A DNA stretch of 64,000 nucleotides from Planctomycetota bacterium (GCA_039190745.1 JBCCXZ010000012.1:1-64000); one strand, 5' to 3'; shown: positions 36,041 through 53,162, counted from the stretch's first letter. Made by a program: numbers and translations. Notes: a model not told the origin generated them from the sequence alone.

Positions 36041-36379
36041 TACCGCCCATAAGGCGCCGGCGAAGGGCGCCTCTACGGAGTTGAGCACTGCGCCGCCAAG
36101 TTTCTGCAGGGGTATCCTTCCGCGGAGCTCATCCGGGGGAAGGCCAGAACACCTTGCCACAATTAATCATTCACTGATCTCCGCAAGGCGAGATTCGTTG
36201 GACTCTACGAGGCAACACGGACTTAAGCTTGCCTAGGCAAACACAGTTGTGCTGATGCGTTTTCATGCAAAGCAAGATACGGCAACATTGGCGCCACGAA
36301 CAAAACAACAGGGGCAATAACGCCGCGCGGTTTGGGAGGAAAACTAAGCACAGGCCGCTATGGTCACCGTCACTTCCCG

Positions 36380-37975
36380 CTAGTTTGAGGCATCCGCCGA
36401 CAGTTCAAGCACGACGCACGACGAAACAGAATCGCCAACCGCTTGCAGTCGATCGGCCAAGGGCTTTGCGTCGCCACCGACCTTGAGCGTTGCGGGGACT
36501 TCCTCCGGCGTCACCGGCGTGCCTGTGAGCTCCTCGACCGCGGCGGCGTCTTGCACCGTTAAAATCGGCCCCAGCGTGAGCCTCGTCAGCCCGTTCGTTT
36601 TGAGATAGCCCCGGTTCGCTGCCAGCCGATTACCCGAGATGGTTGCGGTGGTCGCCTGCTCGTAAGTGTCGCCCCGGGCGGCCCGTTTGTCATGGTCGTC
36701 CAGCCGTTTCTCGGAGACCTCAAACGCGTAGTCGCCGTTTGAGACGCACGTGTTGTCCTGAACGAACACCCGTCGGCTGTTGCGGATGCGCACGCCGGAC
36801 TTCTTGTTGCCGACAATCATGTTGCCCGCGATCACATTGTCGGAACTCTCGTAAACCGCGACGCCTTGGTTGTTCAAATAGGCCCTGTTGTCGACGACGA
36901 CGTTGCCGGTGCACTCGCGGTCGAGCATGATCCCCGAGCCTGCGTTGCGGTGCGATTCATTCGCAAAGATAAAGCTGTCCGAGACGCCCCGGGAGCCGAT
37001 GATCCCGTGCCGCTCGACCGTCCCGGAAACGTTGTTCTGGGCGATGATCAGCCGGGTCGACCGGTCGTGGGGGTCGATCCCGTACTTGACGCAATCGCGG
37101 TACCGATTCCCAACGATCGCCACGTCGCGGGCCTCGTACGAATAAAAGCCGTAGAAGAGCCGTCGGAATTCATTGCCCACGAGAACCCCCGTCGGCCAGT
37201 CGTCGTTGACGCCCCCCCGCTCACGCTCGGGTTCGCTTGAGAGGCTGATCCCATACGACGTCGGGGCCGCGTAGCCCAAGTCCTGGAAGACGCTGTCGAG
37301 CAGCACGGTGTGCGAACGGATGTGCGACGCGAGATAAGGGCGGAAATGCTTGGGGTCAGACAGAGGGGTTGCCGCTCCCGAGTCTTCGTCCCAGGACGTG
37401 ACCAACGAATCCACAACCCACAGCGTCCCTGCGTTGATCACAAACGCCCCGTCGCCCGTCGACAGCCGCAATTCTCGCGTGTTCGAGCCGTTCACCACGA
37501 GGGTTGCGCCAGGCTGGATCAGTAGCGGCAGCCGCAGGGTCGCAACGCCCGCCTCCGACGAGGCAACCAGCGGGTCGTTGACCTGGGCTATCAACTCGCT
37601 GAGGGTGAGTGTCCCGCTCTGCGCGGCTAGCGCACGCAGGTCTTCGGTTCCCTGCCGCTCGACCAAATCGGCACGCCTGTTCGATTGGAGCGACTCCTCA
37701 AGAAAATCATCTCCGTCTGCCGCTATGAGACCCGCCACACCGTCCGAACCTGAGGGGAGGCCCCGGCGGACTGCAGCAGGCTCGAAAAGAGCGAGGTCCG
37801 GCAACTCGACATCCGGAGCCGCATAGACCTGGTCGCACGGGGCAACCACGTACTTCGATTCTTGGGCGAGCGCCGCCGGCTCGAAACCGCGACACGCCGT
37901 GGCGACCAGCAGCACAACCAACACCCGACCGCACGCACAGCCGCGTCGGGAGGACCCCGCAGGGGTTTCACTCAT
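36380..37975 (-). CDS. algG: AlgG-like poly(beta-D-mannuronate) C5-epimerase, exported beta-helix
   Basis: FRPYL, LGYAAPTSYGIS, YGFYSYEA, YGIDPHDRSTRLIIAQN, HGIIGSR..DSFIFAN, SGIMLDR, VYES and GVRIRNS, collinear with Pseudomonas AlgG as recalled. Confidence 0.85.
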   Translation of the reverse strand: MSETPAGSSRRGCACGRVLVVLLVATACRGFEPAALAQESKYVVAPCDQVYAAPDVELPDLALFEPAAVRRGLPSGSDGVAGLIAADGDDFLEESLQSNRRADLVERQGTEDLRALAAQSGTLTLSELIAQVNDPLVASSEAGVATLRLPLLIQPGATLVVNGSNTRELRLSTGDGAFVINAGTLWVVDSLVTSWDEDSGAATPLSDPKHFRPYLASHIRSHTVLLDSVFQDLGYAAPTSYGISLSSEPERERGGVNDDWPTGVLVGNEFRRLFYGFYSYEARDVAIVGNRYRDCVKYGIDPHDRSTRLIIAQNNVSGTVERHGIIGSRGVSDSFIFANESHRNAGSGIMLDRECTGNVVVDNRAYLNNQGVAVYESSDNVIAGNMIVGNKKSGVRIRNSRRVFVQDNTCVSNGDYAFEVSEKRLDDHDKRAARGDTYEQATTATISGNRLAANRGYLKTNGLTRLTLGPILTVQDAAAVEELTGTPVTPEEVPATLKVGGDAKPLADRLQAVGDSVSSCVVLELSADASN

Positions 37976-39236
37976 GGTTCTCCGCTCCCCGGTAAACCAA
38001 CTCGTTGAAATCGGTCTCCGACCGCCGCTTCGGTATCGCCTTCAAGAGTTCGAGCAGTTCCGGGGCCTGGTACTTCATAGCGCCCAAGTAGAGAATCTGG
38101 GCTTGCCGCGGCGAAATCTTGTAGGGCTTCAGCATCGGGTGCGGCCACTCTTGTTCCCCAGCCAGGTATGGTTCGAGGTACCGCAAGGCTCGGAGGAGCG
38201 CCGGGTCGTCCTCGGGGCAACGCCAGGCGTCCAGTCCCACGGCTTCCCCGACCCGGGCGGCGGTGCTGAGGGCGAGCAGATTGAATACGCTGTAGTGCAA
38301 CGAGATCGACCGCTTCAGCTCGTGCGGCTGGCGCCCTTGGTCGTCGATCTGCCGCTGAAGCCTTTGATCGATGACCTTCGTGACGATCTGCCTTGCTAGA
38401 TCGTCCCTGCCTACGAATACCGCGATCCGCCCGGCCTGGGCGGCGTGCCACGAGCCGTGGTTGTTCTCGGCTTGCTCTTCTTCTTGCCCGAGGTCGCTCT
38501 CGAGGAGCCAATCGAGGTAGCTCCGAAACCACTCCGCCAACGCGGCGCGGTCTTCCGAAGCGAGAAGCCCCGCCGAGTGCAGCAGCTCGACGCTGTCGAG
38601 CACCCTGATGAAGCTGCGCGTGTCGATCACCCCGACGCCCCGACCGACGGCTCTTCCCGGGACGGCTTGGCCGAAACGCAGGTGGGGGTTCATCCGGGTC
38701 TTCGCTTCCAGGAACCAGACGCGGACCAACTCGGCGGCGTGGCGAGAGTACCGGTCGTCGTCAAAGAAGTAACCTGCGAGCGTCAGGGCCTCGACGTCGT
38801 CCATCATCATCCCGATCGGCGTGCGGTCGCCGCGTTCAACCAGCGATCGGTTGACCACCCCGTCTCGCCGGACGTACGGCAGGCCGTCGTCGGTATCAGG
38901 GTTCGGCCACCAGTAACGGCTGAAGCTGATGTAGTCGTGCCGATCGCCGCTCGGAGCGAGCTCGTCTTTGAAAACAACCGAGTACGGACCGCGGTCCAAA
39001 GCAGTGTCAGCGTAAGACTTCAGACGCCGCAGCGCGTGGCGGATGCCGTCTGAATCCGCCGCCCCGGCTCGAACCTTTTCGATGTGCCGGAGGTCCCACA
39101 GGACAACGGTCGGCTCTGCGGCGTGCGACGCGGACGCCGCGACGACCAGTGCGATCCAGAGAAGGCTGCCAACGACCCGGGAGCGACGGGGCAGTCGAGG
39201 CCTGGGGTGGGTGGTAAGGCGACGGGAGCCGGGCAC
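37968..39236 (-). CDS. exported alginate lyase domain protein (PF05426; PL38-like)
   Basis: HDYISFSRYWWPNPDTDDGLPYVRRDG, TRMNPHL, NNHGSW, GRQPHELKR, HYSVFNL. Confidence 0.85.
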   Translation of the reverse strand: MPGSRRLTTHPRPRLPRRSRVVGSLLWIALVVAASASHAAEPTVVLWDLRHIEKVRAGAADSDGIRHALRRLKSYADTALDRGPYSVVFKDELAPSGDRHDYISFSRYWWPNPDTDDGLPYVRRDGVVNRSLVERGDRTPIGMMMDDVEALTLAGYFFDDDRYSRHAAELVRVWFLEAKTRMNPHLRFGQAVPGRAVGRGVGVIDTRSFIRVLDSVELLHSAGLLASEDRAALAEWFRSYLDWLLESDLGQEEEQAENNHGSWHAAQAGRIAVFVGRDDLARQIVTKVIDQRLQRQIDDQGRQPHELKRSISLHYSVFNLLALSTAARVGEAVGLDAWRCPEDDPALLRALRYLEPYLAGEQEWPHPMLKPYKISPRQAQILYLGAMKYQAPELLELLKAIPKRRSETDFNELVYRGAENHE

Positions 39237-39242
39237 GGCCTG

Positions 39243-40694
39243 TTACTCCGCTTCGCTGCGGAAGGACGACGCGGGCAGTTCGCGCTGGATCTCGTCGACG
39301 CGGTAACCGAACCCCGTCCCGCGGATAGTGCTGAGGTCGATCTGGCCGTTGCGACGGGCGTAGATGCCCGGGTGCACCTCGGCCTCGGGCGACGACGCTT
39401 CGGGGTAGAACTGCATGGCGTTGGTCTCCACGCCCATCATCGTGCCAGCGTGTGCCGCGAGCAGGACGTGCGGGATCTGCGCGAGCATCGGGTTTGTCAG
39501 GTCGTGCACCATCAGGTGCATGCCGTGGGCCTTCGCCCAGCAGAGCGAAAGGAGCGTCCCCGTCTGCGTCTTGCACGTCTTGAACGCGACGCCCGTCCAG
39601 CCGAGTGAGTGGCCCAGCTTGACGTGCTGCCAGTCGTCTGCGCTCTCGTCCATGAGCAGCGGCTTGCGCTGCGACACGCTGTTCACCACGATCCGGTTCG
39701 CCTTCATGTCGTACGGGAACGGTTGCTCCAGGAACAGGAGCATGCCGAATACCTCCGGGTTCTCCGCGGCGAGGCGGTCGAGGATATCGTTCACGTAGAG
39801 CGGGTCGGTCACCGTGCAGTTGAAATCGGCGCACAACCACTCCACGCCGGCACGCTGCCCGATGGTTGCGACACGCACCAGTCGTTCGAAATCCCAATGC
39901 GAGTCGTTGCCGCGCAGCTTCACCTTCAGGCAGCCAAGGCCGTCGCGCTCGATCCAGTCCGCAAGCAGCACCGGGTAGCCGTCCGATGGCTCCGAGCCGT
40001 CGAGGTCGGCCTTTTCGAGCGGGTCGAGCCCGCCGACCAGGTGCCACGCCGGCATGCGGTCGGCCCGCTGCGGCACGAAGTAGTCCTGCGGGTACATGCC
40101 CGCGAAATCGACCGACACCCCGTCCGCGGGCTCGAGATAGGAGAACAGATCGTGGCTGAGGAAGTCTGCGTTATACGTCTCGTAGACGGGCCTGCCCTGC
40201 GCATTGCCGTAAGCGTCGTGCAGTGCCAGGTCGAACGCCGAGCAGCAGACCAACGCCGCCAAGTGCGGGAGCTCGCCGCCCGCGGGCCGGTCCGCGTTGA
40301 ACTGAGCCCGAACGCTCTCAAGCGACAAGTGCTGGAAGGCGTGGCCGACCTCAAGGGCGTGCCCCCACGCCTCGAAGCGGGACCAGGCCGTGTTCAGCTC
40401 GTCGACGAACGAAACCGCGGCGTCGAAGCGTTCTTGGTAAGGCAGCGGGCTCGGCCAGATCCACTGGATGCTCAGCGGGGTCTCGCCCCAGCCCTCGAAC
40501 AGCCGCCCCTCCCGGTCGCGGACCGTCAGCCGCACCCGGACGCAGGTCACCGAGGTGAGTGTTTCGCTGCCGAACTTGAGCGGCACGCGTGTCACCACGG
40601 GCAGCAAGTAGACTTCCGACGCCACGACCCGGACATCGGTGGGACGATCGCCCAGCGGCAGCTCTCGCTTTGGTGTGGTTTCGACGGTGCTCAT
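39243..40694 (-). CDS. enolase-superfamily (mandelate racemase/muconate lactonising) protein, candidate sugar-acid dehydratase
   Basis: GWGE, AFDLALHD, KVKLRG (KxK), ADFN, LEQP, MDES metal-ligand pattern. Confidence 0.8.
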   Translation of the reverse strand: MSTVETTPKRELPLGDRPTDVRVVASEVYLLPVVTRVPLKFGSETLTSVTCVRVRLTVRDREGRLFEGWGETPLSIQWIWPSPLPYQERFDAAVSFVDELNTAWSRFEAWGHALEVGHAFQHLSLESVRAQFNADRPAGGELPHLAALVCCSAFDLALHDAYGNAQGRPVYETYNADFLSHDLFSYLEPADGVSVDFAGMYPQDYFVPQRADRMPAWHLVGGLDPLEKADLDGSEPSDGYPVLLADWIERDGLGCLKVKLRGNDSHWDFERLVRVATIGQRAGVEWLCADFNCTVTDPLYVNDILDRLAAENPEVFGMLLFLEQPFPYDMKANRIVVNSVSQRKPLLMDESADDWQHVKLGHSLGWTGVAFKTCKTQTGTLLSLCWAKAHGMHLMVHDLTNPMLAQIPHVLLAAHAGTMMGVETNAMQFYPEASSPEAEVHPGIYARRNGQIDLSTIRGTGFGYRVDEIQRELPASSFRSEAE

Positions 40695-40709: not shown

Positions 40710-42086
40710 TTAGACTTGCCACGGCTTGCGAGACTCGACGCCGAGCATCGCGTTGGCTTGCTCGCTGCCGCTGCCCTCGAAGGTCTCGCTCTCCGGGTCC
40801 CACTTCAGCTTTTTCGCCCCGAGCCGGACGGCGATATTGCCGAGATGGCAGATCGTCGCGCTCCTGTGGCCGACCTCGACCGGAGCGTTCGGCTCGCTCC
40901 GCGACTTGACGCAATCGATGAAGTTGCGCTGGTGGTCGTCGTTGCTGGCGTACACACGCAGGTCTTTCACTTTGCCGAGCGGCGCCTTCAGCTTGCGAGG
41001 AACCGTGACGAAGTTCTGGCCCTTGTTGTCCACGCGGACCATGCCCTCCTCGCCCTCGAAGACGGTTCGCACCGCAGGGTGCCCCGTGAAGCACTCCAGC
41101 ACCACGCCGTTGTCGTAGGTGCAGCGGAAGTTGGTGTGCGTTGCGGCGTTGAAGAGGCTGCCCTCCGGCAGGAATTCGGCGTAGACGCACTCGATCTTGG
41201 TCGGACCGGTGTTGTCCGTCCCCAATCCCCACTGGGCGATGTCGAGCGAGTGGGCCCCGAAGTTGGCCACCTGCCCGCCGGCGTAGTCGTAGTTAAACCG
41301 GAACCGGTACAGGCAACGGTCTTTGTGGTACGGAGCCTTCGGAGCAGGGCCGAGCCACATGTCGTAGTCGAAACCTTCCGGCACCGGCGTCGGCTCCCAC
41401 CCCGGTCCGGGGCCGACCTTGTTGTGCGTCCCGACGTGCGCGAGCACCCGCCGCACCTTGCCGATCGCGCCGCCGCGGACCAGGTCGACCGCCGCCCTAA
41501 TGACGGGGTTCGACCGCTCGTGGCTGCCCGTCTGCAAGACAACGTTGTTCTCCCGAACCGCCTTCACCATCGCCTGCTGCTCTTGAATGGTGAGCCCCAG
41601 CGGCTTCTCGCAGTAAACGTCCTTGCCCGCCTTGCAGGCCATCACCGTCATGCTGGCGTGCCAGTGGTCCGGCGTAGCGATCACCACCGCATCGATGTCG
41701 TCGCGTGTGAGGATCTCGCGGAAGTCGTTGTAGCCGTCGCAGCCCTTGTAAGAACCTGAAGCCGACTGCTTGCCGTAGTAAGACTCCACTTCCTTAACGG
41801 CGGGTTCGCGGCCGTAGATGTCTCTATCTTCTTTGTACCCGTTGCTGCCGCGGTTGACGTCGCACACCGCCAACACATGGCACTCGGCGTTGGTCAGGAA
41901 CCGCTTCATCACCGGGAAGCCTTGGTTCCCGACCCCGATGCAGGCGAGCGTCACACGGTTGCTCGGGGCCTCGGCGCCGAACACCCGCGCCGGGGCGAAG
42001 TAGGGGGCCGCGACCGCCGCAGCGGCCGCTGTCTTCACAAAGCCGCGGCGCGTCGTCGCGTCAGTTTTCTTGGGTGCGTCGGACAT
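40710..42086 (-). CDS. Tat-exported Gfo/Idh/MocA oxidoreductase
   Basis: TRRGFV signal, IGVGNQG, IATPDHWHA, DVYCEKP, GAHSLD. Confidence 0.92.
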   Translation of the reverse strand: MSDAPKKTDATTRRGFVKTAAAAAVAAPYFAPARVFGAEAPSNRVTLACIGVGNQGFPVMKRFLTNAECHVLAVCDVNRGSNGYKEDRDIYGREPAVKEVESYYGKQSASGSYKGCDGYNDFREILTRDDIDAVVIATPDHWHASMTVMACKAGKDVYCEKPLGLTIQEQQAMVKAVRENNVVLQTGSHERSNPVIRAAVDLVRGGAIGKVRRVLAHVGTHNKVGPGPGWEPTPVPEGFDYDMWLGPAPKAPYHKDRCLYRFRFNYDYAGGQVANFGAHSLDIAQWGLGTDNTGPTKIECVYAEFLPEGSLFNAATHTNFRCTYDNGVVLECFTGHPAVRTVFEGEEGMVRVDNKGQNFVTVPRKLKAPLGKVKDLRVYASNDDHQRNFIDCVKSRSEPNAPVEVGHRSATICHLGNIAVRLGAKKLKWDPESETFEGSGSEQANAMLGVESRKPWQV

Positions 42087-42092: not shown

Positions 42093-44399
42093 TCATCCTT
42101 TCCGTTCGGCGTCCGCCTGGCGGCGACGCCCGAAGAATACAAATACCGCGGCCCCGGCCGATGCCAGCAAAGCCGTTCCGGGCTCGGGGGTTTGGGTGAT
42201 TGCCGAGACAACAGCGACGCCGTTGCCGTAGTCGCGTTGCCACACGACGAGGTCGTTGAGGTCGACGTCGCCGTCTTCGTCGGCGTCCCCGTCCATGTGC
42301 GTGGCGCCCGAAGCCAAGCCGAAGCCGGCTTCCCACGCGGTCAGGTCGTCCGCGTCCACGTCGCCGTCTTCGTCGAAGTCGCCCGCGTCGAAGGTGATGT
42401 CGAACAAGGCGTCCAGCTCCGACTCGGACAGCGCCCCGTCGAGGTTCAGCACGAACGCGTCAAACTCGGCGAACCGCTCGCGTTTGCCGATCCGGAACTC
42501 CAGAGGCACGCCGACGTGCGACGCCGAAATCGTGAACTCCTCGCCCGTCTCCCAACGGTAAGTAGAGTCCGAGGAGAGGGTCTCGATGTCGTCGGGGTCC
42601 ACGCCGAAGTCGGTGGGCACGTAGATGCTGTCGGAACTGCCGTCGAATCCGCGTGCCCGGTAGTAAGCTGTGTAGGTGCCCGGTTGGTCAAACTCAAGGT
42701 CGTACACCGCGATCGTGTCGTGCGTGTCGCCGGGCAGGTCGACCCGGTCGGTGAACGGCGCACGCAGCGTCTCGCCGCCCAGAGCCAGCGGGTCAGTAAG
42801 TGTTGTCCACACATTGCTATCGCCGTCGGGATCGAGGATCACCGTATAGTCCTCGGCCTGAATCGCACAGCCAGCTGTGTTGCAGCCGCCCCCGCTCGGC
42901 GGCGGCGGCGAGAAGAGCCAATCGGGGCCGATGTCGCCCGCTTCGAGCGGCTTCCGGACAATCGCCGCGGCAGAGACCTCGTCGGCCCCCACGTCGAACA
43001 GCCCGATCCGCGGCTGGCCGTCCATGTCGTCCGAAAACACTCCGCTGTAGTCGCCCACGCCCGCGTTGATCACCGGGCTGGTCGCGGAAGGCCGCCAGAG
43101 GCCGTCGCTGCCTTGGGTCAACTCGGGGTCGACCACCGTAATACCCGGGTCGCCCGATTTGGGGCCGAGGCTCCCTCCGAAGGCGATGTTCCCCTCCCAG
43201 GTCCACCCACTGCCCCCGGTGCCCTCGGTACCCTCGAAGATGGTCGCGCCAGAGCTGCGGAAGACGTTGTTCGCCACGGTCACGTCCTCCGCAAGCAGCG
43301 TGCGGCCGCTGCTGCCGAAGCCGTCGTCGAAGGTGATCATCTCTTCGAGCGTGTTCACGATCGTGTTGTGGGCGATCACGGCGTCCTTCACCTGCACGTA
43401 ACCGTTCAGCGGCGTATTGGGGACGCCCGCCGAGATAGAAATCGCGCCACCGGCGCGGTCGTCAACGTTCGCGATGTAGTTGTTGACGACCGTCTGCCTC
43501 TCGCCGATGACGCGGATGGCGCCGCTGCGGTTCTTGCCCTCGCCGAGAAAAAAGTTCCCCTCCACCAGGCTGTCGTTGCCGTGCCTCAGGGTCAGCGTCC
43601 CGGCCGACTCGCGGAAGGTGTTGTAGCGGAACGTGTTGTTGCCGCTCTTGTTCGAGATGATCTCGATCTCGCCGTCGGTCCGCTCGAAGAGGTTGTTCTC
43701 GACCACCGTGAACGAATCGCTGAGCGACTGCCCGCTGGTGCCGACGCGGATAGTCTCGAACCCGTTCCCGTTGCCCTCGGGCCGGTCGGCAAAGTGGTTG
43801 CTGTCGATCAGGTGGCGATTCTGGGAAGCGTCGTCCCTGCGGACCACCACGGTCACGCCGGAGTGGTTGTGGTCTTCGAAGTAGTTGTTGTCGACACGGT
43901 TGTCCTGCCCGAACAGCTCCACCCAGTGGTACCGGTCGTTGATGCTGCCGGGGTTGTAGCTGATGATTGCCGAGTTGGTGAGACGGCTGTTGGTGGCGGC
44001 GCCGAAGTCGCCGCGGAACTCGACGATGGCCCGCCCGCCGTCCGCCAGGGCCCCGCCCTCGAAGCGCAGGCCGTCCGCCACAAGCCAGTCGCCCGAGATG
44101 TCGAGCGTCGAGTTGCCGTTGAGGATCACCCCGCCGGGCGTCTGCGCTTTGAGTGTGATCGGGTTGGCCGAGGTCCCGAAGCCGTTCAGCTCGATCTGCT
44201 GATTGGTCCAGACGCCGTCGGTCATAATGAGGTTGTCGCCCGGCTGGAGCGAACCGAGCGCGTTCTGGATGTCGTTGGCCGAAGACACAAGGATGTCCGC
44301 CGCCCCCGCCGTCCCGGCGACCGCGAACGCCCAGCACGCCAGTGCAGCGCCCAGCGGTGCGCGTATCGCGAGACGATGGAGTGTCGGAAGCCTGTTCAC
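42093..44399 (-). CDS. polysaccharide lyase family 6 (alginate lyase/chondroitinase B fold) with accessory domain, dockerin-like repeats and PEP-CTERM
   Basis: NGFETIRVG, GEIEIISNKS, LTLRHG, GDFDEDGDVDADDL repeats, TPEP + TM + RRR. GTG start at 44399 with AAGGA SD. Confidence 0.92.
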   Translation of the reverse strand: MNRLPTLHRLAIRAPLGAALACWAFAVAGTAGAADILVSSANDIQNALGSLQPGDNLIMTDGVWTNQQIELNGFGTSANPITLKAQTPGGVILNGNSTLDISGDWLVADGLRFEGGALADGGRAIVEFRGDFGAATNSRLTNSAIISYNPGSINDRYHWVELFGQDNRVDNNYFEDHNHSGVTVVVRRDDASQNRHLIDSNHFADRPEGNGNGFETIRVGTSGQSLSDSFTVVENNLFERTDGEIEIISNKSGNNTFRYNTFRESAGTLTLRHGNDSLVEGNFFLGEGKNRSGAIRVIGERQTVVNNYIANVDDRAGGAISISAGVPNTPLNGYVQVKDAVIAHNTIVNTLEEMITFDDGFGSSGRTLLAEDVTVANNVFRSSGATIFEGTEGTGGSGWTWEGNIAFGGSLGPKSGDPGITVVDPELTQGSDGLWRPSATSPVINAGVGDYSGVFSDDMDGQPRIGLFDVGADEVSAAAIVRKPLEAGDIGPDWLFSPPPPSGGGCNTAGCAIQAEDYTVILDPDGDSNVWTTLTDPLALGGETLRAPFTDRVDLPGDTHDTIAVYDLEFDQPGTYTAYYRARGFDGSSDSIYVPTDFGVDPDDIETLSSDSTYRWETGEEFTISASHVGVPLEFRIGKRERFAEFDAFVLNLDGALSESELDALFDITFDAGDFDEDGDVDADDLTAWEAGFGLASGATHMDGDADEDGDVDLNDLVVWQRDYGNGVAVVSAITQTPEPGTALLASAGAAVFVFFGRRRQADAERKG

Positions 44400-44419: not shown

Positions 44420-44869
44420 TCACTCGGTGAACGGCTTGCCGCCGTCCCAGGTGAGTTCGATGGTCAGGTCTTCGTTGGGTTCGTTGATCTCGAACGTCAG
44501 GTCCGAAGTCCGGAAGTCGGCGTACTTCTTCGGGGCGTGCCAGCGGACCTTGCTCTCGCCGAGGATCTCGCTGGCAGAAATCTGCACCCGGTGGCGCCCG
44601 GGGATCACGCCGTCGTTGCCGTCGTAGCAGGTCAATACAAACGAGCCGTCCGGCTGGACCTTGCCGGCTGAGGGACGGCCTCCGGAGGGAACAAACTTGA
44701 TGTTCCCCTGCGGCAGGGGCTGCCCGTCGATCAGCACCTTGCCGGCTACCTTGACGCGTGTCGGCAGGCCGTCGCCGCAACCGCTCGCCGCAAGAATGGT
44801 TCCTAAGATCGCAAAGAACAATCCACTCAGCGGGCGCCCCAGGGCGTTCTGTTTGGCTCGCGTGTTCAC
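44420..44869 (-). CDS. DUF1559-associated lipoprotein (carboxypeptidase-regulatory-like fold)
   Basis: Lipobox AASG-C, VAGKVLIDGQPL, GRHRVQI, PKKYADFRTSDL. Confidence 0.8.
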   Translation of the reverse strand: MNTRAKQNALGRPLSGLFFAILGTILAASGCGDGLPTRVKVAGKVLIDGQPLPQGNIKFVPSGGRPSAGKVQPDGSFVLTCYDGNDGVIPGRHRVQISASEILGESKVRWHAPKKYADFRTSDLTFEINEPNEDLTIELTWDGGKPFTE

Positions 44870-45465
44870 TCGGGCAGTCCCTCCACGTCTTCTTCAGCAG
44901 CCGGGTCGACCGGGGCGTTCTCGCCAATCTCTTCGGCAGCAGACCCATCCGAATCCGTCTGTGTTGGAATGTTCTCTTCAGACTCGACCAGCGGCTCCTC
45001 TTGAGACTCGACGTCGTCTCCTTCGGGCTTGTCAGGCTCGCTGCCTTCCCAAGTTAAGTCGATCTTTAGATCTTCCACCGGCCCCGTAATCTCGGTCTCA
45101 AGGCCCGAGGTACGGAAGTCCGCGTACTTAGCCGGCGCCCGCCAGATGACGTCTTCCGCGTCTTCACCGGTGATCTCCGATGCCGAAACGGCGATGCGGT
45201 AGTCACCGGGCGTAATCCCGTCTTGCATCGTCTGCCCAACGGTCACTTCAGCGAGCTGGAATGAGCCGTCTTCAAGGATCGCGCTGCTGACCGGCCGCCC
45301 CGAGGAAGGAAAGAACCGGATCGTGCCGCCTGCAAGTGGCTCACCGTCGACCGACACCCGACCCGCAACCGGCACAAGCCCCGACGGCTTCTCGCAGCCG
45401 TATAGCCCAGCCAACAGGCTCAATACCGGAAGAGACAGCAGCGTCTGTGCTCGCAATGGGTTCAT
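44866..45465 (-). CDS. DUF1559-associated lipoprotein with an acidic tail
   Basis: Lipobox LYG-C, VAGRVSVDGEPL, GDYRIAV, PAKYADFRTSGL. Paralogue of the neighbouring gene. Confidence 0.8.
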   Translation of the reverse strand: MNPLRAQTLLSLPVLSLLAGLYGCEKPSGLVPVAGRVSVDGEPLAGGTIRFFPSSGRPVSSAILEDGSFQLAEVTVGQTMQDGITPGDYRIAVSASEITGEDAEDVIWRAPAKYADFRTSGLETEITGPVEDLKIDLTWEGSEPDKPEGDDVESQEEPLVESEENIPTQTDSDGSAAEEIGENAPVDPAAEEDVEGLPE

Positions 45466-45510: not shown

Positions 45511-46578
45511 TTAACGCCGGCCGCGTGTTCGGGTCTTCAAGGCGGTGCACTCCGGATCGTCGATCTCGTCCATCGCCAGCGGCGGCCCCTTGATCGTGGA
45601 GAGCTCCTGGTAGAGTTCAAAATCAATGTCTTCGGTCAGGAACTCTATGTGTGCGTCACCGTAAGCAAAGTTTGCGCCACCAGGATGTCGGCTCGCGAAA
45701 GCCCCATTGACCTCCGCAGGCCAGCTGCCAACTTGTTTAGCGTCCACGCCAGGCGGAGTATTCAGAGCCACATCCGTTACGCGGTAAGTATCCAAGTACC
45801 GGTGCCCGTAGCTCCAAATGTTGGAGCCCTCAAACGTGTGATTCTCAATAGTCTCGCCCATCGAGATCGTGTTGCTTGTGCCATCCTCGACGTTCCTGAT
45901 CGCAATCGTGCTCGCGCCTAGCGGGCTGTTGTACAGGTGCAGCCCTGTGTTCTTGTGCTTGACCATGCAGGCGTCCACGACGAACCCGCCGTTGACGCCT
46001 CGGTGACCGGCAACAAACGCGTAGGACCCGGTTGCGGGCGGCGGATCGTACCTGTCCAAGTACTGCTCGACCTCGGTGAAAGGCTCAGAGTCATCCGACG
46101 GACAAACAAAGATCTGTGGGCGCGTGTTCATCGCCTGGAGTCGCTCTGGGGTGGCCCACACGCCGGACGAAAACTCCCCTGCCGGCCAGATACTTTCATT
46201 GTCGTAGATATCGAGCTGATTGAACAACGCATCTTGTTCTAGGAAAGGCAGCAAGAGTACAAACCCGCTCGCGCCCGATCGGAGTTCGGGCGTGTTCCAC
46301 GGCAGCAAGTAAAAGTCACCGGACGAGTCGGGCCCCAGACGGGCGTGCACGTAATGACCCTTCACGCCCTCATGGTTCATGTCCGCCAGGGCGAGGTTCT
46401 TGAGGTTGTTCACACAGCTCATCCGCCGCGCAGCCTCGCGGGCAGACTGTACCGCCGGCAGCAGTAGCGCCACCAACACGCCGATGATGGCGATCACCAC
46501 AAGCAGTTCGACGAGCGTAAATGCCCGCAAACGGGCGGGGAGACATTGACAGCGATTGCCGTGGTGGTGGCGGAACAT
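45511..46578 (-). CDS. DUF1559 prepilin-like protein
   Basis: [63 protein letters not shown]. Confidence 0.93.
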   Translation of the reverse strand: MFRHHHGNRCQCLPARLRAFTLVELLVVIAIIGVLVALLLPAVQSAREAARRMSCVNNLKNLALADMNHEGVKGHYVHARLGPDSSGDFYLLPWNTPELRSGASGFVLLLPFLEQDALFNQLDIYDNESIWPAGEFSSGVWATPERLQAMNTRPQIFVCPSDDSEPFTEVEQYLDRYDPPPATGSYAFVAGHRGVNGGFVVDACMVKHKNTGLHLYNSPLGASTIAIRNVEDGTSNTISMGETIENHTFEGSNIWSYGHRYLDTYRVTDVALNTPPGVDAKQVGSWPAEVNGAFASRHPGGANFAYGDAHIEFLTEDIDFELYQELSTIKGPPLAMDEIDDPECTALKTRTRGRR

Positions 46579-46787
46579 CGATTGGGTCCTAGAAGAGTGT
46601 TGCGGGAGCACGTTGGGTCCCTCCGTTAGTTCCATCGGGCAGATGGTTCACGCTGCCGCCAGCGTGCCGCTAGTGGATTGGGTTTCAGGGCTTAATTGAA
46701 GCCGGCGAGGCCGCTTCCGCGGCCGCCGCCGGCTGTCTCTTGCGTGCAGGCCCTCTAGCTCGCACGAATCAAATCACAGAGCAGCGG

Positions 46788-48329
46788 TTAGCGCTTCCGG
46801 CGCCGCGAAGCCAAAGCGACCAACCCGCCCGCCAGCATGGCCAGCGAGGCCGGCTCGGGCACGGCGCCAACGGCACTGACCGGCGACGAGCCGGTGCCGA
46901 ACCCGCCGTCCCAGTCGCCGCCAGCGGCAAGGTTCTCGCCGTTCCGCTGGCCCAGCAAAGCGTCGGCCACGTCTACGTCGCCGTCGCCGTCGAAGTCGCC
47001 CGGCACGCCGCCCGCGGCAATCACCTCAACCATGAAGTTGTCGATAATCCAGTCGAACTCATCGAGGTTGCCGATGGTTGCCATCGCAAAGTAGTCCCAG
47101 GAGTCGCTCTCGATGCCGCCGTCCGGATCGTTCGTACCGGCCACGCCAACCGGCTCATAGTCCGAGAGGCTAAACGTCTGAGCGGCAGCGATGTCGGTCA
47201 CCTCGAGCGTCGACAGGATCGTGTCGGCCGTGCCGCCCGAATCCGGGTCGGTAAAACGCTCCAGCGTCAGCGAAAGCGTGTAGGCCTTCTGGTAATCGAG
47301 GTTCACAAAGTTCGGAGTCACCTGGTTGGGCACCGCGACGCTGTCTTGCGGGCCGGTCAGGTACGCGAGGTCCGTCCCCGAACCGACCGAGTTGTCTTCC
47401 TCGACGATGCGGGCATCGGCGCCCCCGGCGAGCGGGCGGAAGAGCGGGTCGGGCTCATCGGGGTCTTCAATGGGCACCCGTGCGTACCAGCCCTTGTCGC
47501 CGTTGCCGCCGGCGCCGGGCAGGTCGCCGCGGAAGTTGCCGCCCTCCGAACCCCAGACGGCCGAAGTAAACGCATCGCCGGCAAAGGGGTTCGCTTGACC
47601 AAGCTGGCCGTCGGAGTCTTCGAACAAACCAAACCGGAGTTCCGAAACTGTCGGGATGTGCTGCAGCGTGTTGCCGTTGAAGTTCGGCGCGCTCATCCAG
47701 ACGCGGTAATCGAAGCTCACGCGGACCTTGTCACCCTCGTTGGGCCCCAGGGAAATCGTCCCCTGGTTGCCGTCGCTGTAGTCGTCGTCAAAGAACGCGG
47801 CGACCGAACTGCCCCGCCCCTTCGACTCATTCGCGAGCGCCAAGCCTGAACCCAGAGCAGCGACCGTGTTCTGCCCCGGGGTGTTCGGGCTGGTAAACCC
47901 GATCGCGGGGTTCGTGTCCGGCAGGGCGTTCACCGAGTCGTCGATGATCCGCGAGTTGGTCTTTGGGTCGTTCGGCGGGGTGGGGCCCGAAGTAAATCCA
48001 CGCGTGAAGTACCAGGGGACGCCCACGTCCGACGCGTCTTCGACCGCCGTGACCTCGTTCACCATCACCCCGTCGGCGAAAATCGTGTCCATCATCGAGC
48101 TCTGCACCGGCTCGTAAGAATCGCCCGGCGTGCCCAGGCCCGCGCTGCTGACATCGACGTCGTACGCCTCGAGCGGAACGCCGTTGTTGTCGAGGTCCGC
48201 GTCGCCGAAGCCGTCGGAAATCACGACCACGGCCGAAGCCTGGCCGCAAGCCATGAAGCCGATCGCCAAAGCAACCGCGGCCAGCGCCAGGTTGCGAGTG
48301 CTCCCCACGGAGCGTTGAACTCTGAACAT
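46788..48329 (-). CDS. PEP-CTERM exported protein of unknown function
   Basis: AAAGGA SD, signal peptide, GDFDGDGDVD repeat, VPEP + TM + RRRKR. Confidence 0.85.
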   Translation of the reverse strand: MFRVQRSVGSTRNLALAAVALAIGFMACGQASAVVVISDGFGDADLDNNGVPLEAYDVDVSSAGLGTPGDSYEPVQSSMMDTIFADGVMVNEVTAVEDASDVGVPWYFTRGFTSGPTPPNDPKTNSRIIDDSVNALPDTNPAIGFTSPNTPGQNTVAALGSGLALANESKGRGSSVAAFFDDDYSDGNQGTISLGPNEGDKVRVSFDYRVWMSAPNFNGNTLQHIPTVSELRFGLFEDSDGQLGQANPFAGDAFTSAVWGSEGGNFRGDLPGAGGNGDKGWYARVPIEDPDEPDPLFRPLAGGADARIVEEDNSVGSGTDLAYLTGPQDSVAVPNQVTPNFVNLDYQKAYTLSLTLERFTDPDSGGTADTILSTLEVTDIAAAQTFSLSDYEPVGVAGTNDPDGGIESDSWDYFAMATIGNLDEFDWIIDNFMVEVIAAGGVPGDFDGDGDVDVADALLGQRNGENLAAGGDWDGGFGTGSSPVSAVGAVPEPASLAMLAGGLVALASRRRKR

Positions 48330-48555
48330 CGTTGACAGTCCTTTCTCAGTGCCCTGCATTGTTGATGAGACAGCAGCGCTGATCGCCGCGCGCCCCCGAC
48401 GTCACGCCCGGGCGGGCATTGCCAGCTGAAGATTTGAGATCGTTGGAGAAGAAACTACCGCGTCTTGAAAAGCCGTCCGTGTCGAGCGGCCGCACCAGTG
48501 AAGACCCTGGATCGCCGCAACGCATTTCATCCTGTCTTGCAGATGTGTATTGGGC

Positions 48556-48715: not shown

Positions 48716-49885
48716 TCAATCGATATCGCGGAACTGTTTCCTGTATGCAGTGGCGGTCATGCCCATGTTCTTGCGGAAAACCTCGCAGAAGTACTTCGGC
48801 TCTTTGAACCCAGTCCGCAGGGCAATCCTCGAGATCGGCTGCTCGGTCTCGCACAGCAGGAGCTTCGCCCGCGTCAGCCGCACGCGAGTGATTTCCGCCT
48901 TGATTGTCCGGCCCAGCGTGGTCTTGATCCTTCGTTCGAGCGTACTGGGCGACTTGCGTGCCCGGCCGAGCACGTCCTGCACGAGGATGCCGTCGGTGGC
49001 GTTTTCTCGGATGAAACGGATGGCGGACGCCACGTCCTCGTCGTCCACCGACAGCATGTCGGTCGACTGCCGCGGCGCAACCCCGCGCGGGGGCCCCAAC
49101 AACGTCGGCCCCGGGGGGACTTCCTCTCCGGCCATCATCTGCGAGAGGATCCGCGCCGCCTCGTAACCAACCCGGCTCGGGTTGACGTCGATGCTCGTCA
49201 GCGGCGGCGTGCAGAGGTTGCAGAGGTACGAGTCGTTGTCGACTCCGATAACTGCGACCTCGTCGGGAACCGAGATCCCGGCCCGCCGACAGGCGTCCAA
49301 CACGTTGCGCCCGCGGTCGTCGTGGCACGTCATGACCCCAACCGGTTTGGGCAGACCCGACAGCCACTGAGCAATGCGCTGCTGCTCGGTTTCCCAATCG
49401 GTCGTCCTCACGTTCCGCGATTTACCGAGGTAAACCTCGCACTTCAGCCCGGCCTGCTGGACGCGTTCAACGAAGTAATCGCACCTCAGGTCCTGGTTGG
49501 GGTTCTCTCCGCGCGGAGTGCCGCAGAACGCGAAGTGCGGCAGCGCACAGTCCAGCAGATGATCAAACGCAAGCTTCGAAATGGGGCGATTATCGACGCC
49601 CACAAAAGGCATCTCGAGCCCCGACAGTGCGCCCCGGACATCCACGGCAGGTATGCCGGTGCTTTGGATGATCTCGGCCATCTTGTAGTCGTTGACACGG
49701 GCGAGCAAACCATCGCCCTTCCACGTCTTGATCCAAGACGGCAACGGGTCGTCCAGCCCGTGGGGCTCTAGGAAGATGGACCAGGGACCGTGTTGGCGAT
49801 GGTACCGAGAGACCCCGCGCAACAGGCCACGCGCGTACTCGCGGGAGGTCTCAATAATCAACGCAACTTTGAGCAAGTCTGCCAT
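48716..49885 (-). CDS. XylR-type regulator (LacI-like sensor domain + AraC HTH)
   Basis: VALIIETSREYARGLLRG, VPDEVAVIGVDND, PPLTSID, IALRTGF..YFCEVFRK. Confidence 0.92.
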   Translation of the reverse strand: MADLLKVALIIETSREYARGLLRGVSRYHRQHGPWSIFLEPHGLDDPLPSWIKTWKGDGLLARVNDYKMAEIIQSTGIPAVDVRGALSGLEMPFVGVDNRPISKLAFDHLLDCALPHFAFCGTPRGENPNQDLRCDYFVERVQQAGLKCEVYLGKSRNVRTTDWETEQQRIAQWLSGLPKPVGVMTCHDDRGRNVLDACRRAGISVPDEVAVIGVDNDSYLCNLCTPPLTSIDVNPSRVGYEAARILSQMMAGEEVPPGPTLLGPPRGVAPRQSTDMLSVDDEDVASAIRFIRENATDGILVQDVLGRARKSPSTLERRIKTTLGRTIKAEITRVRLTRAKLLLCETEQPISRIALRTGFKEPKYFCEVFRKNMGMTATAYRKQFRDID

Positions 49886-49955
49886 GGCGGAAGAGGTGTG
49901 CTGACTGCCTAACGAGAAGAGCTCGGCCACTGAAATGTGCGACCGCGGGAACAAG

Positions 49956-50117
49956 ATAATCGGAATCGAATTCCCCCTGAAATCCGATTATAGAGAATAA
50001 GAATCCGATTTTACGTCAAATTAATGACGGCCGTCCGCTTGTGCTTTTCGCTAATCAAGTGTGCATCTGCCATCCGCGGCGACGAGAAAGTGGAATCGGA
50101 ATCCAGCTAATTGGATT
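49956..50117. promoter_or_regulatory. divergent control region with candidate XylR-type operators
   Basis: AATCCGATT at 49981 and 50002 (21-bp phase), inverted ATAATCGGA at 49956, and an opposite-orientation pair AAGTGGAAT (50088) / AATTGGATT (50109). Confidence 0.55.
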
Positions 50118-50258
50118 GCCCGTTGCGAAGCTCCGGAAGACGATGGATACGCGGTCGGGGACCTTCGGGAGCGCCTAACACGTCGCCCGAATGGATGTCT
50201 TTTGGTCCGCACAAGGCGTTCGACGCCGCTCTTCTTTTGGACCTCATCGCTTCGCCTT

Positions 50259-53162
50259 ATGGATCGCCCTAATCTCATGGTTGGGTTGTGTAGGAACCCT
50301 GTCTGGTCCGCCCTTGTGTTGGTGAGTTCGCTAACCACGCCGGCGGTGGCCGTGGAGAGTGCGTGGGTGACCACGGGCGCGACGGGGCGTCTGGTCTACA
50401 CGCCCGACGCAGAGGGCGACCGCGTGCTCGACTTCTCCGACGTGGGCTACATGGGCGTCGGCATAGAGGCCATCCCCAGCACGGTCGCCAACGCCGTGAC
50501 CATCAGCCCGGTTTCGGGAGACGATACCGTCAGCATCCAGACGGCAATCAATCAAGTCTCAGCACTCCCGATCGGCCCCGACGGCTACCGCGGAGCGGTC
50601 CTCTTACAGCCGGGCACCTACGACATCAACACGCAGCTGCGCATCGAGGCCAGCGGCGTCGTGCTCCGTGGCTCGGGGCAGGACCTCGGAGGGAGCATCC
50701 TCAAAGGTCGGAACGCCGGCCCCAACGGAACCAACCAGCGCCAGTTGATTGAAGTCCTTGGCTCCGGCAGCCGCAGCAACATCGGGTCGACGCGGAACCT
50801 CATCGACAAAGTCGTGCCGGTCGGGTCGCGGAGCTTTCGCGTGGATGTCCCGGGCGAGTTCTCCGTAGGCGACACCGTCCGCATCGAGCGGCCCAGCACG
50901 CAGGCCTGGATCAACGCCCTCGGCATGGACAACCCGCCCAACGGCGACCCTCCCTGGCAGCCCGGCACCATGAACGTGCGGTACGACCGCGTCGTAACGC
51001 GCGTGGAGGGCGACCGCGTGTTCGTCGACGCCCCGCTCGCAACCGCGTTCGAGCAGCAGTACGGCGGCGGCACAATCCGCCGCTACAACTGGAATGGAGC
51101 GATCGAGAACGTCGGCATCGAGAACCTGCGCGGCGACTCCGACTTCGATTCCCCGACCGACGAAGACCACGCCTGGGAGTTCATCTCTATCGGAGCCGGC
51201 CAGAACAGCGACCGCGCCCAGAACGTCTGGGTGCGGGACGTCACGGCCCTCCACTTCGGCGACTCCGCCGTCGTCGCCAACCCCAGCGCTAAGTGGGTCA
51301 CGGTCGACAACGCCACCAGCCTCGAGCCGGTAAGCCAGATCACCGGCAGCCGCCGGTACACGTACGACTTGAGCGGAGAACTCGGCTTCGTGACAAATTC
51401 CTCGGCGGACGAGGGCCGCCACGACTTCGTCAACAACAGCACGAGACCGCCCGGGCCGAATGTCTTCCACAACTCGATCGCCACCAACGCCAACAGCGAC
51501 ACAGGCCCCCACCAGCGTTGGGCCAGCGGCACGCTCTTCGACAACATCACGGTCGAGGGCAACGCCATCAACGCACGCAACCGCGGCAGCTTCGGCACCA
51601 CCCACGGCTGGTCGGGAGCCAACATGGTCATCTGGAACTCCACCGCAGACAGCTACCGCGTCCAGAACCCGCCGACGGCCCAGAATTGGCTCGTTGGCTC
51701 TACGGGCACAATCGTGGAGGACACCACGTTCGGCCCGCAGCCCTCCGGGAACTACGACGCGCACAGCACGCCCGTCACGACCGGCGGAACCAACAGCCTC
51801 TACGAAGCACAACGCAACGACGCCCGCGACCTCAGGGTCTTCCGCTGGGTCGGCACAAACGATGATTGGACCGATGCGTCCGGCTGGGATCAGGCCGCTA
51901 CGCCGGGCGTCTACGCGGTCTCCATGAGAGACTACCTCATCGGCGACGTCGACGATTACACCTTCGACGGGCCCGGCAGCGACGACGACCTGTTCGTCGA
52001 CCCCGCCTGGGAGGCGTACATCCTCGGCTCGTCGTCGCATCCCATCGTCGGGCACGACACCGTGACCACGAATCAGAACGTCGCCTTCACCATCCAGACG
52101 CAGGTCGACCCCGGCGAACAAGTCGTCCACGCCACCCTCGCGCTGGCGATGAAGCAGTCCGGCGGCGACGTCGCAAGCGACTTCGTACGCGTGATCGACA
52201 ACTCCCTCTCGAACCGGTTCGACTTCGACGACCTCGGCTGGGACGCCCAGATCAACCCGACCAACACCTTCGTCGGCGTGCTCGACCTCGGCGGATCGCT
52301 CCCGGGCCTCCAGTCCGGCTCGGTCAATGTGCAGGTCAACGACGACACAGCCGTCGAGTGGGCCCTGTACACCGCAACTGTTGCGACGCCCAAGGCAGAC
52401 CCCGACGGAGCCGATGTGTTCCTAGACGCCGGGGGCGTCACGGGGCTGAACGCGGCGTTGCCGGCCATCCAGAGCCTCACAATCGGCGGGGCCGGCGCCG
52501 GCGAGCTCGACATGGGCTTTGCCGGCAGCCTCGAAATCAACGGCGACTTCTCTCAAGCAGCCAACGGCACGCTCGGCGTCGAGCTGCTCACCACGATCCC
52601 GACCGGCTTCAGCTCCATCCAGGTCGACGGGCAGGTTACCCTCGCCGGGGTGCTCGAGGTCTCGCTTGGCGACCTCGGCGGCTCGCCGCTCTCACCCGCC
52701 GCGGGCGACGCCTTCGAGTTGATCACTTCCGACAGCCTCACCGGGCAGTTCGATACGCTCGCCCTGCCCTCATTGGCCGACGGCCTGACCTGGGGCATCG
52801 ACTACGCCAACGACGACGTCACCCTCGGGGTCTTCTACCAGGGAGACTTCGACGAAGACGGCGACGTCGACGCGAACGACCTGGCCCTTTGGCAGGCCGG
52901 CTTCGGGCTCGCCGGCGCCGGTGTCGGTCACTCCGACGGCGACGCCGACGGCGACGGCGACGTCGACCTGGCCGACATCGCCGTGTGGCAGCAACAGTTC
53001 GGCAACGCCGCCGTGGTCGCGGCGTCGTACGCGGTCCCCGAGCCCGCGACGGCCTTAGCCCTTGCCGCTTTCTCTCTGACAATCACCGGCCGCGTGACGC
53101 GGCGACGCCCCCTCACCCCCCACTCGGCCAACACTCGCACAGGACCAGGATGCACGCACTAG
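50259..53162 (+). CDS. exported right-handed beta-helix polysaccharide-active protein with dockerin-like repeats and PEP-CTERM (start 50259 or 50277)
   Basis: Signal peptide, DDTVSIQTAIN...AVLLQPGTY..SGVVLRGSG (pectate-lyase-3-like N-terminus), GPHQRWASG, HGWSGAN, VPEP + TM. Confidence 0.8.
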   Translation: MDRPNLMVGLCRNPVWSALVLVSSLTTPAVAVESAWVTTGATGRLVYTPDAEGDRVLDFSDVGYMGVGIEAIPSTVANAVTISPVSGDDTVSIQTAINQVSALPIGPDGYRGAVLLQPGTYDINTQLRIEASGVVLRGSGQDLGGSILKGRNAGPNGTNQRQLIEVLGSGSRSNIGSTRNLIDKVVPVGSRSFRVDVPGEFSVGDTVRIERPSTQAWINALGMDNPPNGDPPWQPGTMNVRYDRVVTRVEGDRVFVDAPLATAFEQQYGGGTIRRYNWNGAIENVGIENLRGDSDFDSPTDEDHAWEFISIGAGQNSDRAQNVWVRDVTALHFGDSAVVANPSAKWVTVDNATSLEPVSQITGSRRYTYDLSGELGFVTNSSADEGRHDFVNNSTRPPGPNVFHNSIATNANSDTGPHQRWASGTLFDNITVEGNAINARNRGSFGTTHGWSGANMVIWNSTADSYRVQNPPTAQNWLVGSTGTIVEDTTFGPQPSGNYDAHSTPVTTGGTNSLYEAQRNDARDLRVFRWVGTNDDWTDASGWDQAATPGVYAVSMRDYLIGDVDDYTFDGPGSDDDLFVDPAWEAYILGSSSHPIVGHDTVTTNQNVAFTIQTQVDPGEQVVHATLALAMKQSGGDVASDFVRVIDNSLSNRFDFDDLGWDAQINPTNTFVGVLDLGGSLPGLQSGSVNVQVNDDTAVEWALYTATVATPKADPDGADVFLDAGGVTGLNAALPAIQSLTIGGAGAGELDMGFAGSLEINGDFSQAANGTLGVELLTTIPTGFSSIQVDGQVTLAGVLEVSLGDLGGSPLSPAAGDAFELITSDSLTGQFDTLALPSLADGLTWGIDYANDDVTLGVFYQGDFDEDGDVDANDLALWQAGFGLAGAGVGHSDGDADGDGDVDLADIAVWQQQFGNAAVVAASYAVPEPATALALAAFSLTITGRVTRRRPLTPHSANTRTGPGCTH

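Follow-up and report, generated by a model that had tools for sequence, protein, structure and literature searches.

Polymer-level uronate C5-epimerases are textbook biosynthetic enzymes, and the class is so far known only from the synthesis and tailoring of polysaccharides. Here, we describe an exported homologue of the alginate epimerase AlgG, encoded in a 64,000-nucleotide (nt) stretch of DNA from a Planctomycetota bacterium (GCA_039190745.1, JBCCXZ010000012.1:1-64000), the whole of which is called the window below. The gene directly follows that of a PL38-like lyase in a lyase-rich locus. A role of this gene in alginate breakdown, and not in synthesis, is well supported, since most relatives of the protein are fused to the lyase, the locus is conserved, rich in lyases and accompanied by a XylR-type regulator, the gene occupies varied places within it, and no synthesis pathway was found. 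This agrees with the catabolic setting proposed in an earlier note on this DNA, which had been made from the sequence alone.

The alginate loci of Bacteroidota and Gammaproteobacteria combine PL6/PL7 and PL15/PL17 lyases with KdgF, a short-chain dehydrogenase/reductase (SDR), KdgK/Eda and a transporter. The planctomycete locus resembles them in its clustered lyases (PL6, PL38 and, in Pirellulimonas nuda, PL7), SDR, transporter and sugar-responsive regulator, but in place of PL15/17 and 2-keto-3-deoxy-6-phosphogluconate (KDPG) aldolase it holds a GFO/IDH/MocA oxidoreductase with a twin-arginine signal (TAT-GFO), an enolase-superfamily protein, a TIM barrel, DUF1559 and PEP-CTERM proteins and, sometimes, the AlgG-like protein. 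AlgG itself is a periplasmic enzyme of Pseudomonas and Azotobacter. According to a review (PMC4444821), AlgG is encoded in the synthesis cluster of every alginate producer, and in its mechanism an arginine neutralises the carboxylate, the histidine of a DPHD motif abstracts H5, and Tyr314 holds a water molecule that is a possible proton donor. The window protein (P0001) shares with AlgG (solved structure 4NK6) the fold, the YGIDPHD motif, the Tyr/His/Arg set and export. It differs in being only 33-39% identical to proven AlgGs, in belonging to a separate clade (support 99) whose members are often fused to PL38, in lying outside an alg operon, and in an extra conserved C-terminal part of about 75 residues.

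The calcium-dependent AlgE-type epimerases, built of A and R modules, tailor self-made alginate, whereas P0001 lies in a degradation locus and shows only a weak local match to the A-module of AlgE4 (E 9.6e-9, residues 311-454; Foldseek TM 0.30-0.40); no R-module family appeared in P0001 with Pfam, and the combined architecture is not seen. The secreted AlgE7 of Azotobacter vinelandii, which like P0001 is a beta-helix with a DPHD motif, is a precedent for epimerising and cleaving at one site. BoPL38 of Bacteroides ovatus (8BDQ) resembles the partner lyase (P0002) and the N-terminal halves of the fused relatives in sequence and in its His/Arg/Tyr residues, and it combines lyase and epimerase chemistry; it uses one active site for both reactions, whereas here the lyase is joined by a separate, dedicated domain or gene of the AlgG type. 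Its preprint (10.1101/2024.12.11.627697) names His243, Arg292 and Tyr298 as key residues and describes cleavage of polyM, polyG and polyMG (M, mannuronate; G, guluronate), with much higher activity on polyG, together with a lag on polyM and an M-to-G epimerase side activity of about 4%, which its authors read as epimerisation before cleavage. In the accessible text of the literature searched (including PMC11890756, PMC6110156, PMC12992946 and PMC11960938; few subscription papers and no supplements), no epimerase in an alginate degradation locus and no PL38-AlgG fusion was reported.

The AlgG-like protein and its partner lyase

P0001 was recognised by the NCBIfam model of AlgG (NF038177) with an E value of 5.2e-88, residues 39-454 of the protein covering positions 38-453 of the 519 in the model, and it matched the solved AlgG of P. 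syringae (4NK6) over residues 57-454 (E 2.6e-71). The N-terminus has a basic and then a hydrophobic stretch and is signal-peptide-like. A structure prediction from 63 sequences (mean predicted local distance difference test score, pLDDT, 92.3; predicted template modelling score, pTM, 0.90) places 40 low-confidence N-terminal residues with one helix before a long beta-helix, which is followed by the C-terminal extension of about 75 residues, predicted with confidence. When this model was compared using Foldseek, AlgG 4NK6 was the top match (E 7.8e-29, TMt 0.92, root-mean-square deviation 2.5), all other families reaching E 8e-7 or worse, and the right-handed parallel beta-helix of AlgG is seen in the predicted model. 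Tyr298, His303 and Arg329 align with Tyr314, His319 and Arg345 of P. syringae AlgG; these three residues and Asp301, Pro302 and Asp304 are invariant in 62/62 planctomycete-type and 57/57 other homologues. P0001 is a true AlgG homologue, which resembles AlgG in every sequence and fold feature looked at and falls short of it in the equivalog score and in biosynthetic context. In public records, the homologues are annotated as either "poly(beta-D-mannuronate) C5 epimerase" or "alginate lyase family protein."

The conservation of these residues bears on whether the beta-helix is catalytic at all. AlgG is reportedly of structural importance in Pseudomonas apart from catalysis. Moreover, it binds at least nine residues (PMC4444821), and a non-catalytic helix that binds the polymer or feeds it to the lyase could be imagined. 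Nevertheless, the whole catalytic motif is strictly kept in all 62 planctomycete-type homologues across 43-71% identity, which is unexpected for a mere binding module, and we give this explanation hardly any credence. Since all catalytic residues of the epimerase are kept, an epimerase function of P0001 appears to be favored.

The partner lyase P0002 matched PF05426 (E 4.2e-79), and its closest solved relatives are 3NFV (E 1.3e-72) and BoPL38 (E 2.9e-59). An assignment to the AlgL or PL5 type was rejected, as AlgL and A1-III, which are PL5 enzymes, matched no better than E 0.003-0.007. Both PL38 kinship and the catalytic residues could be recognised in its sequence, and the lyase residues His260, Arg309 and Tyr315 are invariant in 34/34 proteins (P0002 and 33 fused homologues). 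The start codon ATG of P0001 and the stop codon of P0002 overlap by the 8 bases ATGAGTGA; GGAG stands about 8 nt upstream. In a public marine-metagenome run, a separately assembled contig covers positions 36380-39236 with a single substitution and without indels, which gives no sign of a frameshift artefact at the junction; the run is probably the source sample, and its independence lies in the assembly only. Among the public runs that contain the stretch, no RNA run is listed, and this marine metagenome is the only one to cover it in full. Overall, these observations bear out what the earlier note had seen in the sequence, namely, an intact exported AlgG homologue with the YGIDPHD motif, its overlap with the stop of a PF05426 lyase gene, and a PL6 lyase in the same gene string. 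The genome has another PL38-like gene elsewhere (contig C24:36661-37854, plus strand), with 43% identity to P0002.

Relatives of the gene pair and of the locus

The homologue set comprised the best 120 listed of 206 with E <= 0.001, from 8000 candidates scored. Its 62 closest members (P0007 to P0068) are from Planctomycetota where named, and in 36 of them PF05426 and the beta-helix are joined in one protein of about 900 residues, the lyase coming first as in the gene order of the window. The closest homologue (P0007, 71% identity) is unfused and, like P0001, has its own signal-like N-terminus. A hydrophobic N-terminal segment was seen in 56 of the 62 clade members, the other 6 being truncated or marginal; two proteins (P0022 and P0023, 782 and 784 residues) carry a different N-terminal domain, for which a Cupin_2 match at E 0.02, below threshold, is a lead only. 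In a quick, unrooted maximum-likelihood tree of 119 rows, from which the 320-residue fragment P0068 was dropped, a planctomycete-type clade of 62 rows was separated from 57 others with a support of 99. Within this clade, fused and unfused forms interleave, the starred branches forcing at least six changes, and P0001 and P0007 are together sister to a fused protein (Shimodaira-Hasegawa-like approximate likelihood ratio test, 95). In such an unrooted tree, gain and loss of the fusion are indistinguishable, and the window pair is best read, as far as sequences can tell, as the split state of a fusion that was formed or broken several times.

Outside this clade, the family appears to fuse with synthesis partners and not with lyases, since a sample of 16 long homologues, drawn from the 150 best cluster representatives, included one protein that combines AlgX and one that combines Sel1 with the beta-helix, and one with TPR. 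The long homologues P0159, P0211 and P0144 are of this kind, being fused to AlgX (SGNH), Sel1 or TPR parts. Many AlgG homologues of 1000-1300 residues have about 700 N-terminal residues without a Pfam family.

At the level of the locus, 301 genomes sampled from the order were searched, and three further planctomycete loci were taken from a species-representative collection, giving 8 planctomycete AlgG-like loci in all; gene orders were established by tblastn with 13 proteins of the window locus and by Pfam. A locus of about 20 kb around the XylR-type regulator recurs in one family of marine planctomycetes. The AlgG-like gene was found in 5/301 genomes of the order, that of the window included, all from this one family (4/33 of its other genomes), and genes of the window locus surround all 8 planctomycete copies, in at least five arrangements. 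In three loci (G249, L017 and L018), genes for a PEP-CTERM protein, DUF1559, a small protein, PL6, GFO and enolase precede a PL38+AlgG-like fusion, with a further PL6 downstream in L018; the window has the order of G249 with PL38 and the AlgG-like gene split. In G190, the string consists of XylR, GFO, enolase and the fusion. Pirellulimonas nuda (G074) has a transporter, a PL7 (PF08787, E 2.9e-44), an SDR and a TIM barrel and, divergently, XylR, GFO, enolase and the AlgG-like gene, with no PL38 here. L019 holds XylR, a PEP-CTERM protein, DUF1559, the small protein, PL6, a TIM barrel, a 334-residue PEP-CTERM protein and the AlgG-like gene. Strain MalM25 (G228) has a whole locus of the window type in which the AlgG-like gene ends the other operon, directly after the transporter, and G181 has the whole locus and no AlgG-like gene.

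The enolase-type protein occurs in 217/301 genomes of the order and a PL38-like lyase in 43/301. By coordinates, 14 genomes of the family have the two side by side, and in no more than 3 of these is the AlgG-like part attached or directly following. Given this occurrence and the varied positions, the AlgG-like gene is a mobile, optional accessory of a conserved lyase locus.

One further relative, G299, encodes a 951-residue PL38+PL6 fusion (L098:8166-11021, C1; PF05426 1.7e-87, PF14592 5.5e-73) where others have PL38+AlgG-like. Another PL6 gene follows it. The presence of a true PL6 lyase domain in the same C-terminal slot after PL38 keeps a lyase reading of the AlgG-like protein alive and is the best support for it: the protein would be mainly a lyase, or a bifunctional epimerase/lyase, that is, an epimerase-derived beta-helix lyase complementing the specificity of the PL38-like partner in a two-lyase enzyme. 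PmC5A of Pseudomonas mendocina, one of the epimerases listed in the BoPL38 work, is presumably of the AlgG type. Lyase and epimerase chemistry share the neutralisation of the carboxylate and the abstraction of the C5 proton (PMC4444821), the preprint on BoPL38 (10.1101/2024.12.11.627697) cites AlgE7 among several epimerases that also show a secondary lyase activity, and bifunctional beta-helix epimerase/lyases keep the same catalytic residues as AlgG. In addition, two positions in the catalytic half of the helix are specific to the clade, namely, Cys355 and Gln370, where other AlgGs have Ser and Asp, respectively. On the other side, Tyr, His and Arg are invariant in the whole clade and nothing marks a loss of the epimerase step, the fold of P0001 matches AlgG far better than any PL family, and these two are the only conserved positions that separate the clade from the biosynthetic AlgGs. 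We regard the lyase reading as unlikely. Cys355 and Gln370 are candidate determinants of any functional change between the degradation-locus and biosynthetic clades.

Alginate synthesis genes were sought with the 12 proteins encoded by one complete alg operon of P. fluorescens, in which AlgK, AlgG and AlgL are named, algD and algA were typed by NCBIfam, and the other seven were assigned by operon order. In the window's own genome (3.89 Mb, 95.5% complete), tblastn at E <= 1e-3 gave no alg8, algK, algE, algX, algL, algJ or algF; alg44 had a weak match of 91 residues, and algD and algA gave generic relatives of 33% identity. Two other matches were rejected as alginate genes: an AlgI-like MBOAT protein (44% identity) on contig C1, which sits in a GT4/sulfotransferase cluster, and a strong PF13372 "alginate export" porin on contig C3, which has a peptidase, an amidohydrolase and unrelated genes as neighbors. 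Profile searches of the genome with PF16822 (AlgX) and PF11182 (AlgF) were empty, and their controls matched nowhere either, while by tblastn the same alg queries detect alg genes at 23-49% identity in distant bacteria. As the earlier note had stated for the window, no other alg gene was found in the genome, generic relatives of algD, algA and algI elsewhere excepted; the note had named a synthesis pathway elsewhere as one thing that would refute its reading, and the search found none.

The contrast is also seen across loci, since other alg genes lie within 10 kb of AlgG in 76/77 non-planctomycete loci vs 0/8 planctomycete loci; AlgG is thus not encoded with alg8, alg44, algK, algE or algX in the latter. 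The one exception among the former (L053:8042-11338, from a metagenome genome of Rhodospirillales) carries a tandem pair of AlgG-like genes flanked by FAD synthetase and uvrC, and neither alg genes nor lyases lie within 10 kb of it. These counts bear on the idea that the gene remodels a self-made exopolysaccharide from a synthase unrelated to Alg8, with the lyases trimming the polymer like AlgL in Pseudomonas. AlgG and the lyase AlgL do occur together in biosynthesis operons, and the MBOAT protein and porin mentioned above could be taken as traces of such a system. However, these two lie on other contigs in unrelated contexts, the polymerase, co-polymerase, AlgK and AlgX were not found in five genomes, and the sugar-sensing XylR-type regulator, transporter, SDR and two to four lyases are the make-up of a utilisation locus; we consider a role in synthesis very improbable.

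The surrounding locus in the window

The five genes for PL6, TAT-GFO, the enolase-superfamily protein, the PL38-like lyase and the AlgG-like protein are spaced by 6, 15, 6 and -8 nt. They form part of the locus listed in Table 1, in which the 1033-residue protein, TIM barrel, SDR and transporter are transcribed divergently from the regulator side. A promoter and terminator scan of positions 35500-50200 gave counts at the level of shuffles.

Table 1. Features of the alginate lyase locus, by position in the window
Feature	Position	Strand	Remarks
AlgG-like exported beta-helix protein (P0001)	36380..37975	-	531 aa; YGIDPHD at residues 298-304; Tyr298, His303 and Arg329 correspond to the AlgG catalytic set
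Overlap ATGAGTGA of lyase stop and AlgG-like start	37968..37975	-	8 nt; preceded by GGAG at about 8 nt; mark of the split state of the PL38+AlgG-like fusion
PL38-like alginate-lyase-family protein (P0002)	37968..39236	-	422 aa; signal-peptide-like N-terminus; His260, Arg309 and Tyr315 correspond to BoPL38 His243, Arg292 and Tyr298
Enolase-superfamily protein (P0003)	39243..40694	-	uncharacterised clade; no signal peptide seen
GFO/IDH/MocA oxidoreductase (P0004)	40710..42086	-	twin-arginine signal
PL6 lyase (P0005)	42093..44399	-	dockerin-like stretch and PEP-CTERM anchor; closest solved relatives are PL6 alginate lyases
Small conserved protein	44866..45465	-	weak CarboxypepD_reg-like match; homologues precede PL6 in other loci
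DUF1559 protein (P0006)	45511..46635	-	prepilin-type N-terminus
PEP-CTERM protein, family unassigned	46788..48359	-	523 aa; conserved at the head of the locus
XylR/AraC-type regulator	48716..49954	-	sugar-binding domain and helix-turn-helix; 61-72% identical to regulators of related loci
Exported protein, no known family	50061..53162	+	1033 aa; conserved in the MalM25 and G181 loci
Xylose-isomerase-like TIM barrel (AP_endonuc_2) homologue	53159..54061	+	start uncertain
SDR oxidoreductase	54081..54833	+	68% identical to the SDR beside PL7 in Pirellulimonas nuda
Membrane transporter	54910..56613	+	weak Nramp match; conserved in the locus; directly precedes the AlgG-like gene in MalM25; last gene of the divergent group

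The PL6 protein P0005 matched PF14592 with E 4.8e-79 and, among solved structures, 8BWK (E 3.3e-78) and AlyGC (9.4e-74); alginate lyases span 3e-78 to 1e-49, and chondroitinase B reaches only 4.6e-22. The Lys in IISxKSG and the Arg in LTLRHG align with identical residues of the solved PL6 enzymes, and we take them to be functional residues of the family. In the longest open reading frame (42093-44948, minus strand), about 184 residues, rich in Arg and of low complexity, come before a clear signal peptide, and the frame overlaps the upstream gene at 44866-45465; it is probably over-extended at its 5' end, the true start being a GTG near 44399. The enolase-superfamily protein P0003 is without a solved relative by sequence, and the Atlas gave only unnamed enolase-type clusters for it. 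The regulator was located by tblastn with its P. nuda homologue.

The products released by the lyases may follow an undescribed route through the TAT-GFO, enolase-superfamily, TIM-barrel and SDR proteins, of which the first two are kept as a pair in the locus, together with genes for the others. The SDR is a candidate reductase for the unsaturated monomer, and an oxidative route of the Udh/Gci type is speculation. The PL15/17 C-domain (PF07940) and KDPG aldolase (PF01081) were not found in the 95.5%-complete genome, in searches whose controls matched in 2 and 9 of 14 genomes, respectively.

This gap raises the question of whether another polyuronate is the target, such as beta-1,4-glucuronan or an algal or bacterial uronan, which the AlgG-like enzyme would epimerise, for example from glucuronic to iduronic acid. 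To our knowledge, every characterised member of the AlgG family acts on mannuronan, which counts against such a target. The PL6 protein is closest to alginate lyases, AlyGC included, the P. nuda locus holds a PL7, and the closest characterised PL38 enzyme with a solved structure is an alginate lyase. For the other polymer speak the gap itself, the GFO, enolase-superfamily and TIM-barrel genes, which lie outside known alginate pathways, the limited identity of P0001 to proven AlgGs, and the glucuronan lyases, both endo- and exo-acting, that PL38 includes (PMC11890756). On balance, we hold a polyuronate other than alginate to be decidedly unlikely.

Two further observations concern the neighborhood. 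The protein of about 1000 residues adjoins the regulator in three loci, those of the window, MalM25 and G181, with 50-57% identity (G228 C1 ~952915-955581 and L100:2990-5908), and has no Pfam family; it shares with PL6 a dockerin-like, PEP-CTERM-type C-terminus, and its own Atlas cluster carries the label "pectate lyase C family" (score 0.91), which is an automatic label only. Following this lead, it may be an undescribed beta-helix lyase. Beside the locus, at 27613-35518 on the plus strand, lie genes for an ArsP-type permease, DUF58, a transglutaminase-like protein, a MoxR AAA ATPase, a small protein and a second ArsP-type permease, which are unrelated to the finding.

A possible epimerase in alginate breakdown

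As described above, the setting of the AlgG-like gene is catabolic. What the protein does there can be proposed from its sequence and neighbors, and we give roughly an even chance to P0001 being an exported C5-epimerase of the AlgG family that aids cleavage as an optional accessory of an alginate-utilisation locus under XylR control. Alginate would be depolymerised by the PL6, anchored through PEP-CTERM, and by the secreted PL38-like lyase, as their families suggest. The AlgG-like enzyme would work next to the PL38-like lyase and in one compartment with it; most relatives have the two tethered, and in the window they are presumably coupled by translation. There, the AlgG-like enzyme may convert M to G in M-rich stretches, giving linkages that the partner lyases cut faster, if these prefer G-containing linkages by analogy with BoPL38 and AlyGC. 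The rationale for such editing is that BoPL38 works much faster on polyG than on polyM, where its action sets in with a lag; for the direct partner, these data give a better reason than the preference of PL6 lyases for G or MG, which the earlier note had invoked. The products would then pass to the conserved GFO, enolase-superfamily, SDR and TIM-barrel proteins and the transporter. Somewhat more tentatively, a little short of an even chance, we propose that the PL38+AlgG-like proteins and the split pair of the window are dedicated machines that epimerise and then cleave, editing a foreign polysaccharide for the lyases. The earlier note had offered either this or an AlgG-derived lyase: its catabolic part stands, and between its two options the kept catalytic residues favor the epimerase, while the slot occupied by PL6 in G299 leaves the lyase with some weight.

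Several points weigh against an epimerase that aids alginate cleavage. P0001 scores 295.9 bits with NF038177, below the equivalog cut-off of 700 bits, for which the AlgG of P. fluorescens as a control gives 1033 bits. Two positions that are otherwise conserved, Cys355 and Gln370, differ between the clades. Most genomes with the locus are without the AlgG-like gene, and the fusion slot may simply hold a second lyase, since G299 fuses PL6 to PL38 there. An epimerase is not strictly needed, because BoPL38 itself cuts polyM, polyG and polyMG, and the substrate is not certain, because PL38 also contains glucuronan lyases. No alg8, AlgK family or algX was found in the 5 carrier genomes (three of them in 1-4 contigs), in searches of which the two with protein queries were without a positive control in the same tool, their sensitivity being known from tblastn only. 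Lastly, full alginate catabolism by this organism is unproven, as the PL15/17 C-domain and KDPG aldolase were not found.

A clade of intact AlgG homologues that occurs only in lyase loci, in genomes where no alginate synthase was found, and mostly fused to PL38, points to a second use of polymer-level epimerases, in which the M/G pattern of dietary alginate is edited for faster breakdown. If true, glycan catabolism would gain a new accessory-enzyme principle, and the weak epimerase side activity recently found in a PL38 lyase would be placed in a biological context. Such proteins would also be a natural source of lyase-coupled epimerases, and their naturally coupled epimerase-lyase pairs could be used for making defined alginate oligosaccharides. 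For the organisms themselves, it would help to explain how kelp-associated planctomycetes attack M-rich alginate.

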